Shown: piece after piece, positions 45,497 to 48,281 of the stretch
Layout of the letters: every line of letters starts with the position of its first letter
How positions within the stretch are numbered: position 1 is the stretch's first letter
From: Deltaproteobacteria bacterium
GTDB lineage: Bacteria > Myxococcota_A > UBA9160 > SMWR01
Assembly: GCA_032128375.1 (NCBI GenBank)
Contig: JAQBGU010000188.1
Coordinates: 64,001-128,000 of the forward strand
Direction of reading: 5' to 3'
DNA length: 64,000 bases
Position numbers and translations under genes: made by a program
The notes under the pieces: generated by a model
What the model was told of the DNA's origin: nothing
Seen by the model: only the letters and a program-made list of their open reading frames with translations
Database searches by the model: none

Positions 45497-46264
45497 ATGA
45501 GCGCTGAAGGGCGACACGAGATCAGAACAGAGAACGAAAAAGGCAGCCGAACTGAGAAACACAGCAGCGCCGTCGTTCTCTTGAGCGGTGGTTTGGATTC
45601 GACCACTACGCTGGCGATCGCGAAGCAACAGGGCTTTGACATCCATGCCATGACCTTCCGGTACGGGCAGCCGCATCAAATCGAAATCGAAGCCGCGCGG
45701 CGCGTCACCGAGCACTTCGGTGTAGTGGAGCATGTGATCGTAGATTTCGACCTGCGACTCTTCGGCGGATCTGCGCTCACCAGCGATCTCGCCATACCCA
45801 AGGGGCGCTCCATCGAAGAGATGGCTTCAGGCATCCCGATCACCTACGTCCCGGCGCGTAACACGATTTTCCTGTCCTTCGCCCTCGCGTGGGCGGAAGT
45901 CTTGAAGTGCGAAGACATCTTCATCGGTGTAAATGCATTGGACTACAGCGGCTATCCGGACTGCCGGCCGGAGTACATCGAGGCCTACCAGCAGATGGCC
46001 AACCTGGCTACGCGCGAAGGCGTAGAGGGTCGTCAACGATTGACTATCCACACGCCGCTGCTCCAACTCACGAAGGCACAGATCGTTCGCCGTGGACTCG
46101 AGCTCGGTGTCGACTACAGCCTCACCTGCACCTGCTACGACCCGTCGTCAGCGGGTGAAGCGTGTGGAGAGTGCGACGCCTGCCTGCTTCGGCTGAAGGG
46201 ATTCGCCGAGAACGGACTGCGGGATCCAGTTCGCTACCGAAAGGATCCACAGGCGTCCGCTTGA
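45497..46264 (+). CDS. queC: 7-cyano-7-deazaguanine (preQ0) synthase
   Basis: [25 protein letters not shown] and Zn ligands TCY...CGECDAC. SD GGAGG upstream. Confidence 0.95.
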
Positions 46265-47214
46265 TTGACGACGACGCGCCCGTCCATTCCGCTGACGACG
46301 AACCTGACGACGTCGTTGATCAGGCGCTGGTGAGCCTGGCTAAGGAGCTGGCCGAGCAGCTGGCCGACCGCTATCGCATCGAACCCGAAAACGCCTATAT
46401 GTCGTTTGTCGAGTCGTGGTTGAACAATCGACCGCTGCGAGAACAAGCCGCTCGCGAATCTGATCATCGGCGCTTGAAGCGAACCCGCGCCTACAAGCAA
46501 GCAGCAGATAAGGTCAAGACGATCACCTACAACAGCCTTCGGAAATACAAACAACAAACACAACAGATGGCAGAAGGTGTGGACGCACTCGGCGAGCTTG
46601 CCAATGAAGGTGTCGACCCGAAAGACCCCCGCGCCATCGCTGCCCGCGAGCGAATCGTCGCCTCGCATGTCAGCACGCGCGAGCGACTGCCCGATCTCGA
46701 AGCTTTCCTCGCCGCGCTTTTCGAGCTGGCCCCAGAGCCGACGAGCATCCTGGATATCGGCTGCGGTCTGCAGCCCCTCCTCTACCCGTTCGAACGTGAC
46801 GGTGGTGTCACGTCGCACTACCTCGCCCTCGACAAGGACAGCTCGATCGTCGCGGCCGTCAACGGCTGGGGGCGACTCGTCGGCGGGCGGCGTCTGCAAG
46901 CGCGGCGCTGGTCTCTATCCGAGGGATTCGAAAGCGTGATCGGCCCCGAGTCCGACGGAATCTTCTCACTCGCTCTGGGCCTGAAACTGATCCCAGTGCT
47001 GGCGCGGCAGGAGCGCAACCAGTTGCCACTGTTTCGAGACATTCCCGCACGGCGTTTCCTGATCAGCGGTGCACGCGAATCGATGGTCAAACGCCGGAAC
47101 ATCGAACGGCGCGAAAGAGCCAGCCTGCTCGCCTTCGCCGACGCATTGGGCTTTCAAGTCCTCGGAACACTCGAAACTGGGAGCGAGCTGGGTCTGCTGC
47201 TGGAGACCCGATGA
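46261..47214 (+). CDS. Divergent ArmA/Rmt/Sgm (FmrO)-like SAM methyltransferase
   Basis: [46 protein letters not shown] and a C-terminal SEL. TTG start overlaps the queC stop (TTGA). Confidence 0.72.
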
Positions 47215-48281
47215 CGAACTCACGACACGTACCGCCGCTGGTGACGCGGGCGGGCATCCGGTACGAACAACCCCTATTCCTACCGGTCTACCAACCGCGG
47301 GAGCGCGTGTTTCAGCTGGCGGCATGGGAGGGCGAGCCGCGCATCGAGGGCATCATCGTCAACGCGTACTTCCTCTACAAGATCCGGGAACTCCGCAAGC
47401 GGCTGGCTGCGGATTCCTCACTCAAGGAGTTCGTCGGCTTTCCCGGTTTGGTGACAACCGACTCGGGTGCGTTTCAAGGCCTGACCCGCCAGTTGTATCT
47501 GTCCAACAAGAAGATCGTGCGGTTCCAAGATGCCATCGGCTCCGACATCATCGCCCCCTTGGACTTGATCACGCCTCCCGGAGACAACCGCACCAACGCC
47601 GAGGGCAAGCTGCGCGCGACAGAGAAACGCGTACAGGAGGGGCTCGCGCTGGTCGAGAGGGGTACCCTCGCAGGCGTTCAACAAGGCGGGCGTTTTCTGG
47701 ACCTGCGCCACGAAAGCGTAAACCGGTTGATGGCGATGGGGGTCGAGTATCTCGCGATCGGCAGCCTGGTGCCGTTCTTTACCGGCAACCACAATCTCGC
47801 CTTTCCCGCAGCCGTATTGGTCGATGCACGCCGCACGGCAGGGCCCGACATACCCATGCACGTCTACGGTGCCGGCGACCCTTGCGAACTGCCCTTCATG
47901 GTCGCATGCGGCGCGACGGTCTTCGATTCTTCCTCGTACGGCCACTACGCCCAGGGGGGCTGGTACATGACACCGTACGGTGCCCTCGCAGGGTCGGGAC
48001 CGATCCTCGCCGGAGAGTTCAGCTGCGCGTGCCCCGTATGCCAACAAGCGCCGATCGACGCAGTGTTCTCGGACCGCACTGCCCTCGCCCGGCATAACCT
48101 GTGGACGATCTGCAACACGGTTCGGAACCTACGCCGGCTGGTTCGAGCGCCAGATGAACTCGACGCCTACTTGGAGCGGATACTCGAAATCCACCAGGTT
48201 TGGTTCCCGGAGAGTCGGCTGGAACCGTCCTGGCGAAGTGTCCAGGACGCGCTGTTGCCGATCAGGAATGGGGGCGGCTGA
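47211..48281 (+). CDS. Archaeal-type tRNA-guanine transglycosylase-like protein (catalytic domain only)
   Basis: [53 protein letters not shown] and Zn site CACPVC-x17-H (ARHNL). ATGA overlap with the upstream gene. Confidence 0.88.

Follow-up and report, generated by a model that had tools for sequence, protein, structure and literature searches.

To our knowledge, 7-deazaguanine bases occur in tRNA, as queuosine and archaeosine, and in DNA, in the Dpd and phage systems, and none is known in rRNA; likewise, we know of no described 7-deazaguanine system of which an N7-guanine methyltransferase forms part. The established function of the QueC family is the synthesis of preQ0, and the ancestral reaction of TGT enzymes is base exchange with guanine. 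The operon analyzed here, which lies in a 64-kb stretch of deltaproteobacterial DNA (64,000 nucleotides, hereafter the window), brings together a queC gene, a gene for a methyltransferase of the family responsible for m7G1405-type aminoglycoside resistance and a gene for an archaeal-type TGT homologue. Like the queuosine pathway of bacteria (QueC, Tgt, QueA) it uses the QueC product, like the Dpd systems it has a TGT homologue that lacks PUA and may adjoin preQ0 genes, and the best sequence and fold match of its TGT is archaeal ArcTGT/TgtA (1IQ8/1J2B), yet it differs from each of them. We found no functional description of the methyltransferase and TGT pair in the literature, in line with a preliminary description of this DNA that knew of no system of such composition.

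The three genes are co-directional on the forward strand and comprise queC (45497-46264, 255 aa) and the TGT homologue gene (47211-48281, 356 aa), with the FmrO/Rmt-family SAM methyltransferase gene (MTase; 46261-47214, 317 aa counted from TTG) between them. As the preliminary description had it, they are joined by two 4-nt stop/start overlaps (TTGA at 46261-46264 for queC/MTase and ATGA at 47211-47214 for MTase/TGT), and the flanking genes are unrelated and on the opposite strand. On the 5' side lies an acyl-CoA dehydrogenase gene (43947-45155, reverse strand), and on the 3' side a GH2 beta-galactosidase gene (48262-51480, reverse strand) that shares 20 nt with the 3' end of the TGT gene. The family calls also stand, with 255.5 bits on PF06508 for QueC, 58.9 bits on PF07091 (gathering score 27) for the MTase and 140.3 bits on PF01702 (gathering score 26.3) for the TGT homologue. 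A Shine-Dalgarno GGAGG (45486-45490) lies 7 nt ahead of the queC ATG, and a GGAG precedes the TGT ATG; of the three starts, that of the MTase is the least firmly placed, as the N-termini of its homologues vary. The same frame is open from a GTG at 46162. In the upstream intergenic region (45156-45496, forward strand) no sigma-70-like promoter was found and terminator-like sites occur at chance level only, and at no position of the 64-kb window does any Rfam family, preQ1 riboswitches included, attain its gathering score. The trio bears no compositional mark of recent transfer, its GC content (0.59-0.63) being like that of the flanks. A Pfam scan of 47 other open reading frames of the window revealed no QueA, QueF, ArcS or Dpd families and, near the trio, no helicase, nuclease, dpdB/C or phage genes. 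Together with the profile scores, this agrees with the earlier view that the layout is neither that of queuosine, nor that of archaeosine, nor that of a Dpd island.

The unit that recurs in other DNA is the MTase and TGT pair, and not the trio that had initially been put forward. Related loci were searched for with an alignment of 15 closer MTase sequences as seed, and linkage was counted over 11 loci from other DNA (L011, L012 and L014-L022), each with an MTase-family match. A TGT-family gene sits directly beside the MTase gene in 10 of these 11 loci (tblastn; Pfam), two of which (L012 and L019) may belong to one organism, and the pair adopts three kinds of orientation (MTase followed by TGT, the two genes converging, and TGT followed by MTase). 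The single locus without a TGT gene, L022, holds a 32%-identity MTase match located 235 nt from the contig end. The identities of the MTase and TGT proteins to the window pair co-vary (Spearman rho 0.88 over 8 loci), and a metagenomic protein of 617 aa (P0275) fuses a TGT, 45% identical to that of the window over 333 aa, to this MTase subfamily, although this protein forms a cluster of its own, comes from a single 6463-nt contig and could result from misassembly. In a second putative fusion (P0303, 622 aa) neither Pfam nor BLASTP finds a TGT domain, and it was not counted. The MTase and TGT are a conserved, co-inherited pair, and a rare one: three phylum samples each contained one pair-bearing genome among 401. 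A phage origin of the pair was discarded, with no relatives of either protein in the viral contigs scanned, and so was a plasmid origin of the TGT subfamily: the 21 PLSDB records matched are all below 30% identity and correspond to canonical or haloarchaeal tgt. The related loci contain no dpd genes or DNA-metabolism neighbours, and no aminoglycoside gene cluster or mobile element was seen tied to the MTase. More generally, a conserved and occasionally fused pair of Rmt-type and TGT-type enzymes implies that the target is of a third kind or that the logic of the reaction is new.

Judged by its sequence, the MTase is a divergent subfamily of the FmrO/Arm/Rmt family. It passes the Pfam FmrO gathering score and falls below the NCBIfam Rmt-family equivalog cut-off (NF000466, 70.1 versus 250 bits), and a profile of its family matches Sgm, ArmA, RmtC, RmtF and RmtB in the PDB (E 8.6e-22 to 1.4e-12), with 17-24% identity to the Arm/Rmt/Sgm enzymes (Sgm 3LCU, RmtC 6PQB/8GHU, RmtB 3FRH, ArmA 3FZG). 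Its long N-terminal domain (residues 11-156) is helical and leads into a Rossmann domain; Foldseek ranks 1-11 for its AF2 model (pLDDT 89.7) are all m7G1405 methyltransferases (Sgm, RmtB, RmtC, RmtF, ArmA), and a look-up in the ESM Atlas returned FmrO clusters again and nothing else. Looking up the clusters of 10 MTase representatives yielded no names. The family alignment has H136xS138xxE141R142, D165xGCG, D191, Y96 and K242 as invariant and R249 as nearly invariant residues. Of these, H136, S138, E141 and R142 align with H105, S107, E110 and R111 of RmtC, D165xGCG with the motif-I region, and D191, Y96, K242 and R249 with D160, Y60, K204 and R211. According to the available text of PMC10288597, RmtC residues Ser107, Asp160, Tyr60, Lys204 and Arg211 take part in SAM binding and in the positioning of the flipped G1405; the alignment indicates that the SAM-binding and guanine-contacting residues of the RmtC type are retained in the MTase. 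The N1-domain residues through which RmtC docks on h24/h27/h44/h45 are Lys20, Tyr21, Arg39, Lys43, Lys47, Arg50 and His54. K20, Y21, R39 and K43 lie outside the MTase alignment, K47 and R50 align with Lys positions in the profile of the MTase family and His54 aligns with an invariant Tyr, while the N-terminal domain of the MTase, longer than in the Arm/Rmt/Sgm enzymes, is net-acidic (pI 5.06). Because of the 70-bit score, the acidic N-terminus and the non-aligning or changed docking residues, 30S docking of the Rmt type stays a prediction. The earlier suggestion that the MTase might methylate the inserted preQ0 was rejected, since 7-deazaguanine has no N7 atom and the conserved active-site residues aim at N7, which makes methylation of the 7-deaza base chemically unlikely. 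A MTase that provides target recognition, or that acts first on guanine, suits the evidence better.

The TGT homologue has TgtA as its best sub-model, although it remains below the cut-offs of both TgtA (TIGR00432, 201.9 versus 350 bits) and Tgt(34) (TIGR00430, 62.4 versus 306.75 bits). Its closest PDB sequence is P. horikoshii ArcTGT (1iq8, E 2.7e-42), with residues 15-313 aligned to residues 28-325 of 582, and its AF2 model (pLDDT 88.7) gives 1iq8/1j2b as top Foldseek matches (E 1.5e-24, 29-30% identity). Across 27 family members the invariant positions are D84, D118, Q158, G184-S-L-V-P-F189, D239 and C272/C274/C277/H295; by this alignment, both catalytic Asp residues (D84, D239) and the CxCxxC...H zinc site are retained, as in ArcTGT, together with a pocket region of the preQ0 type. 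In contrast to the archaeal enzyme, the protein consists of the catalytic TIM barrel and the zinc subdomain only, without C1/C2/PUA (356 versus 582 aa); its pocket reads GSLVP instead of GGVVP; it has a conserved C-terminal WFPxSxLxxSW helix; and it resides in a bacterial host with a methyltransferase as partner instead of ArcS.

QueC itself spans profile positions 2-209 of 210 in PF06508 and clears the TIGR00364 equivalog cut-off (207.3 versus 150.3 bits). A separate canonical queC was sought throughout the genome and none appeared: the operon copy is the only one, and the single other QueC-profile match, of 25.9 bits, lies inside a 786-aa frame. Other queuosine-pathway genes are found elsewhere and include QueA, FolE, two PTPS/QueD-like proteins, one QueE-like protein and two canonical Tgt (486.9 and 423.4 bits, one adjoining queA), so that the operon TGT is not the sole tgt of the genome. 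An apparent QueF match proved on inspection to be FolE, and hence no QueF was found. Contrary to the earlier claim, the operon is not self-contained, because its queC is the only one in the genome and presumably serves queuosine synthesis too; for the same reason, the placement of queC may partly reflect housekeeping supply. preQ0 genes accompany the pair in just two loci, this one and L018, a metagenome contig with the order queC-queE-queD-MTase-TGT (queE, 356.6 bits on TIGR04508 versus 240; queD, 99.4 versus 89.25 bits). QueC above 27 bits is absent from four of the five other pair-bearing genomes (G402, G033, G298 and G202), despite the presence of Tgt and QueA in all four, which implies that not every host synthesizes preQ0; such genomes could obtain it by salvage, or could use a different base. 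The proposal of preQ0 as the incoming base is therefore plausible here, with queC in the operon, and does not extend to the pair in general.

A parallel pairing exists on clinical plasmids, where several Rmt/Arm resistance methylases still have a TGT-like neighbour. In pKP13f the gene order is rsmH, a tgt-like gene, rmtG and a fragment of rsmI (rsmI'); a tgt-like gene likewise directly adjoins rmtD1, and a metallophosphoesterase gene separates tgt from rmtB2. C1402 of h44 is the site modified by the products of rsmH and of rsmI, and the rsmH-tgt-rmtG-rsmI' arrangement points to helix 44 of the 16S rRNA. In the parts of the two reports available, the TGT-like gene near rmtG figures as genetic context only (PMC3904158, PMC9311965). 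Like the operon analyzed here, these segments place an FmrO-family methylase near a TGT-family paralogue; unlike it, they carry a divergent bacterial-type Tgt (291-318 bits, the cut-off being 306.75; pocket GG(W/F)P) and not an ArcTGT-like one, they lack queC, and their MTases are proven m7G1405 resistance methylases. It weighs against an rRNA target for the present pair that the rRNA-operon evidence (rsmH/rsmI) belongs to a different TGT lineage with a classical Rmt partner and not to the ArcTGT-like subfamily, beside which no rRNA genes lie at the window or the related loci.

On the basis of the linkage, the co-varying identities, the P0275 fusion and the queC/queCED link, of the RmtC-type residues in the MTase and the catalytic, zinc and GSLVPF sites in the TGT, and of the plasmid parallel, the non-DNA context and the binding of 7-methylguanine by TGT enzymes, we tentatively favor a joint action of the MTase and TGT on a single guanine of an RNA, probably in the vicinity of G1405, the base brought in being preQ0. 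The operon would then constitute a two-enzyme guanine-modification module with its own base supply, in which the two proteins would be coupled physically as well as functionally. QueC would supply preQ0, and both enzymes would act on the same guanine, part of a structured RNA and most probably situated at the top of 16S helix 44 (G1405 region), rather than on tRNA G34/G15 or DNA. For the MTase, the predicted steps are docking on this RNA, flipping of the guanine and methylation of its N7 in the manner of RmtC; the TGT, itself without RNA-binding domains, is predicted to swap the guanine, or the fresh m7G, for preQ0. Should both enzymes indeed work together on a single nucleotide, site-specific RNA base replacement could be one use of the pair. 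The pair also offers a lead, open to testing, on where the Rmt/Arm aminoglycoside-resistance methylases come from and what their native function is. A bolder version of joint action, which we deem unlikely, fixes the order of the two reactions: the Rmt-type enzyme would flip out a decoding-site guanine of the rRNA (G1405 or a neighbour) and methylate its N7, and the TGT, which lacks PUA and would be bound or fused to the methylase, would then irreversibly put preQ0 in the place of the m7G. Being cationic, m7G leaves far more readily than guanine. The available portions of PMC9299380 and PMC11345089 describe 7-methylguanine as a competitive inhibitor that binds TGT. If true, methylation-primed exchange would place a 7-deazaguanine in rRNA for the first time. 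It would also be the first two-step RNA base editing of a 'mark then replace' kind, and the clinical Rmt methylases would have been recruited from this native role.

The joint action of the pair must be weighed against several other readings. It is conceivable, if rather unlikely, that two independent enzymes share the operon, an intrinsic methylase of rRNA m7G1405 or another m7G, and a TGT that puts preQ0 in a tRNA site other than 34 (G15-like or elsewhere). Both families have such established activities, the TGT is nearest to the tRNA-acting ArcTGT, and the rmtG operon has been read in print, in the text available of PMC9311965, as one of 'rRNA and tRNA modification genes'. However, the adjacency survives changes of orientation and at least two TGT lineages, and one protein (P0275) fuses the two enzymes; the genome already has two canonical Tgt; and the pair is rare and patchy, unlike housekeeping tRNA enzymes. 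Moreover, the TGT lacks C1/C2/PUA, on which ArcTGT depends for tRNA binding according to the accessible part of PMC5699537.

Improbable, in turn, is a DNA module of the DpdA type, in which the TGT would put preQ0 into DNA and the MTase would contribute a further mark, the two forming an orphan system of epigenetic or anti-restriction function. A PUA-less TGT homologue beside queC is a hallmark of DpdA (PMC5699537, in the same accessible part), and the patchy distribution suggests horizontal transfer. On the other hand, the TGT reaches only 20-23 bits on the DpdA models (22.9 on NF041059, with a cut-off of 200, and 19.8 on PADLOC DpdA), no DpdA structure is found among its 51 PDB sequence matches or its Foldseek top 50, and the DNA-processing, dpdB/C and phage neighbours, the viral relatives and the closer plasmid matches are all missing from the loci, contigs and records covered above; furthermore, all solved relatives of the MTase act on rRNA.

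Less credible still is a writer and eraser, or repair, system, in which the MTase would make m7G and the TGT would exchange it for guanine, as a reversible mark or as damage clearance. Guanine exchange is the ancestral TGT reaction, and QueC is missing from most pair-bearing genomes. 7-Methylguanine does bind TGT pockets, as stated in the available portions of PMC9299380 and PMC11345089, yet the invariant pocket motif resembles the preQ0 pocket of ArcTGT, queC here and queC-queE-queD in L018 share the operon with the pair, and it would be futile to co-transcribe a writer and its eraser. A 7-deazapurine antibiotic pathway with the FmrO-like gene as self-resistance is most improbable: genes of the FmrO family classically protect producers from their own antibiotics, toyocamycin-type metabolites derive from preQ0 (10.64898/2026.04.15.718813, available text) and an MFS transporter gene precedes the pair in L014, but no glycosyltransferase, tailoring or cluster-type gene occurs in the window or the related loci, and the same mining study, in that text, assigns pathways in which a TGT is present to nucleic acids and not to secondary metabolism.

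The TGT subfamily extends beyond the loci counted here. The MTase homologue lists obtained contain no partner from the cultured genera concerned, which speaks against the pair as a general rule. The subfamily amounts to 481 clusters, with Actinokineospora, Micromonospora (M. rifamycinica), Krasilnikovia and Nocardia (N. panacis) among its cultured members.

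The organization of the operon was confirmed by our analysis. Three co-directional ORFs on the (+) strand encode QueC (45497-46264, 255 aa), an FmrO-family methyltransferase (MTase; 46261-47214, 317 aa counted from TTG) and an archaeal-type TGT (47211-48281, 356 aa), joined by two 4-nt stop/start overlaps (TTGA at 46261-46264 and ATGA at 47211-47214). Good Shine-Dalgarno sequences can be read ahead of queC and of the TGT gene. Least certain is the start of the MTase, whose reading frame is already open at a GTG (46162) and whose homologues differ at their N-termini. The flanking genes lie on the opposite strand and belong to ordinary, unrelated metabolism (two acyl-CoA dehydrogenases upstream, a GH2 beta-galactosidase downstream), and the GC content of the trio (0.59-0.63) is like theirs. 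Pfam scans of the 47 other window ORFs revealed no QueA, QueF, ArcS, Dpd, phage or mobile-element families, in agreement with the preliminary description, which had reported queA/queF, arcS and dpdB/C to be missing here. Nowhere in the window did an Rfam family reach threshold, and the search for promoter-like sites found none.

The anatomy of the operon, the families of its products, their conserved catalytic residues, the conserved adjacency of MTase and TGT and their co-location with preQ0 genes are direct observations. Building on them, we infer, with somewhat less than an even chance, that MTase and TGT jointly target a single guanine in a structured RNA, most likely in the vicinity of 16S G1405, the incoming base being preQ0 in this case. 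The operon is a variant of the TGT-based 7-deazaguanine systems, with a putative substrate.

The comparative analysis points to the MTase-TGT pair as the recurrent element. A TGT-family gene adjoins the MTase-family match in 10 of 11 loci from other DNA (L012 and L019 possibly stem from one organism), the eleventh, L022, being a weak MTase match at a contig end. The MTase gene precedes a co-directional TGT gene in L012, L018, L019 and L020, follows it in L015, L016 and L021, and is convergent with it in L011 and L017. In L014 (G298:C307:44434-47522), from a genome of the same class, one co-directional run holds an MFS transporter gene, then a classical FmrO scoring 205 bits, with 37-39% identity to RmtB and RmtF, and last a TGT-like gene. 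That the two proteins are simply independent rRNA and tRNA enzymes, as their respective relatives might imply, is unlikely. Identities of MTase and TGT to the window pair co-vary (rho 0.88, 8 loci), and a metagenomic protein of 617 aa (P0275, a singleton from one 6463-nt contig) consists of a TGT domain that shares 45% identity with the window TGT, followed by a domain of the MTase subfamily. For 12 further MTase and TGT clusters the same size is reported for the longest source contig, which suggests that they share contigs. A second long protein, P0303 (622 aa, metagenomic), was not a clean fusion: it is an MTase of the window subfamily with a 330-residue N-terminal extension, in which neither Pfam nor BLASTP detected a TGT and a 13-residue stretch resembles the window TGT N-terminus. 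This protein may represent a TGT-MTase pair that a frameshift makes appear as a single ORF.

The recurrence to be checked for the whole trio held for the pair and not for the company of queC: preQ0 genes accompany the pair in two places only, the window, with queC, and L018, with queC-queE-queD-MTase-TGT. Four of the five other pair-bearing genomes lack a QueC match above 27 bits, which speaks against a general dependence on preQ0; Tgt and QueA are present in all. Within the genome samples the pair is rare. In the window's phylum, 4 of 401 genomes matched the MTase profile (one is the window's own, the other three have distant classical-FmrO/TGT-like pairs), and in its family none of 11 did. 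The TGT subfamily turned up in 1 of 401 genomes sampled in each of three phyla, namely the window's and those of the Vicinamibacterales and Nannocystaceae genomes; these being samples, absence means not found in the genomes searched. The MTase subfamily comprised 45 clusters in a word-seeded search and 99 with a profile, and an exhaustive HMM scan of 1.84 billion representatives returned 200 matches at E <= 1e-30 and 1092 at E <= 1e-10. Almost all relatives are metagenomic, the named ones being MAGs of Myxococcota, Nannocystaceae, Vicinamibacterales, Thioploca and CSSED10. With its 481 clusters, the TGT subfamily extends to cultured Actinokineospora, Micromonospora rifamycinica, Krasilnikovia and Nocardia panacis. 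No relatives of either protein were found in the viral contigs searched, nor was the window TGT subfamily on PLSDB plasmids.

All three family assignments proposed earlier were upheld by HMM searches. QueC exceeds its curated cut-off (TIGR00364, 207.3 bits vs 150.3), and the MTase belongs to Pfam FmrO (58.9 bits vs 27), whereas it falls short of the NCBI Rmt model (70.1 bits, cut-off 250). A profile of 24 MTase relatives matched only Sgm, ArmA, RmtC, RmtF and RmtB in the PDB (E 8.6e-22 to 1.4e-12), and Foldseek ranks 1-11 for its AlphaFold model (pLDDT 89.7) are Sgm/Arm/Rmt enzymes. Aligning the family profile to RmtC, with residue roles drawn from parts of the RmtC-30S paper (PMC10288597), pairs the SAM-binding Ser107 and Asp160 with invariant S138 and D191, Tyr60, which stacks between SAM and the flipped G1405, with invariant Y96, and Lys204, which points at N7, with invariant K242. 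The counterpart of Arg211, R249, is nearly invariant. An invariant Tyr takes the place of His54, the N1 docking residues K20, Y21, R39 and K43 fall outside the alignment, and the N-terminal domain, with helices at 11-156, exceeds that of Rmt enzymes in length and has a net acidic charge (pI 5.06).

The closest model of the TGT is archaeal TgtA, at 201.9 bits against a cut-off of 350, a shortfall explained by its consisting of the catalytic domain only; bacterial Tgt scores 62.4 and DpdA 22.9. P. horikoshii ArcTGT is its best PDB relative both by sequence (E 2.7e-42, residues 15-313 vs 28-325 of 582) and by fold (E 1.5e-24, model pLDDT 88.7). Both catalytic Asp residues, the zinc ligands and the GSLVPF pocket motif are invariant in 27 relatives, which also keep a C-terminal WFPxSxLxxSW helix. 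As compared with the ArcTGT features in the consulted part of a 2016 review (PMC5699537), also our source for DpdA, the window TGT has none of the RNA-binding domains and would therefore need a targeting partner; in the fused P0275, the MTase holds their place.

The wider genome (6.2 Mb, 249 contigs, 91% complete) carries two canonical tgt genes (TIGR00430, 486.9 and 423.4 bits; C12:35347-36411 and C241:6096-7136), and hence the operon TGT is not a Tgt replacement, a case that the preliminary description had considered. Only the second copy adjoins queA, and the presence of two copies could reflect a real duplication or the assembly's 2.9% contamination. Among the other canonical genes to be checked, FolE and two PTPS/QueD-like genes share a contig, and a radical-SAM gene resembling QueE scores weakly (70 bits), with only QueE models as its best matches. 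A separate queC was not among them: the operon holds the sole queC, as well as the sole FmrO gene, found in the genome. This queC presumably also supplies queuosine synthesis, so the operon is not self-contained as had been claimed. The genome search found no QueF, the apparent match being FolE. A radical-SAM gene in the window (40601-41773 (+), 3.7 kb upstream of the operon) is not QueE; it encodes a PA0069-family protein (NF033668, 455.5 bits vs 360).

Should the two enzymes share one target guanine, the MTase would have to act first, because a 7-deazaguanine has no N7. The leaving base replaced by TGT would then be m7G. 7-Methylguanine has been described as a competitive inhibitor that binds TGT (parts of PMC9299380 and PMC11345089). 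N7 alkylation weakens the glycosidic bond. This sequence of N7 methylation and exchange of m7G nevertheless seems quite unlikely to us. A DpdA-like system inserting preQ0 into DNA would accommodate the preQ0 genes, yet it is very improbable; neither the 51 sequence hits nor the top 50 fold hits of the TGT include a DpdA structure. A writer/eraser pair has but a slight chance, and a metabolite pathway is barely credible.

The pairing has a parallel beside clinical resistance genes, which bears on the question of its target. The FmrO-linked TGT-like protein of L015, a locus that belongs to a genome of the window's phylum, shares 42-45% identity with genes that carry the annotation Tgt and lie next to clinical resistance methylase genes. 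Full-length TGT-like genes lie upstream of rmtG (NZ_CP004000.1 192286-199359) and rmtD1 (NZ_KT935445.1), adjacent in both, and of rmtB2 (NZ_CP118864.1), one gene off. The arrangement is rsmH, tgt-like, rmtG and a fragment (the RsmI N-terminus) in pKP13f, where the segment ends at an IS91-like element; tgt-like and rmtD1 in a Klebsiella plasmid; and tgt, metallophosphoesterase and rmtB2 in a Providencia plasmid. C1402 of helix 44, which lies three nucleotides away from G1405, is modified by both RsmH and RsmI, and the captured pKP13f segment has the look of part of an operon for the modification of 16S helix 44, taken from the source organism. These TGT-like proteins are divergent bacterial-type paralogues (275-318 bits vs a cut-off of 306.75; housekeeping Tgt, 423-487). 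Alignment of L014, L015 and the three plasmid loci with L001 and L002 reveals that the canonical pocket GG(L/V)x(V/L)GE has become GG(W/F)P(L/V)(D/G), with loss of Glu, and that some 15-20 residues are inserted past the catalytic FDC motif, which suggests a base specificity other than preQ1. Since window-type and bacterial-type TGTs both occur beside FmrO methylases, two TGT lineages are linked to this family; in one of them the methylase is a proven m7G1405 enzyme, placed in what looks like a helix-44 modification operon. The parts of PMC3904158 and PMC9311965 consulted treat the rmtG context as genetic environment only.

Literature searches outside the subscription journals found no functional description of a pairing of FmrO/16S methylase and TGT, in keeping with the initial statement that no described system of this composition was known to its author, and a term search of a 2026 7-deazapurine mining preprint (10.64898/2026.04.15.718813) returned no mention of FmrO, 16S or rRNA. 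Overall, the initial interpretation is partly supported: it stands for the families and the additional tgt, and falls for the trio as a unit and for self-containment. Elsewhere in the window, Pfam gave no match at E <= 1e-5 for seven sizeable ORFs whose GC3 is coding-like (13404-14309, 14422-16335, 19783-20901, 21895-22893, 33714-35114, 51579-52952 and 59625-61034), and in 9040-11388, where GC3-based gene picking chose no ORF, two long ORFs overlap, 9146-11587 (+) and 9656-10927 (-).
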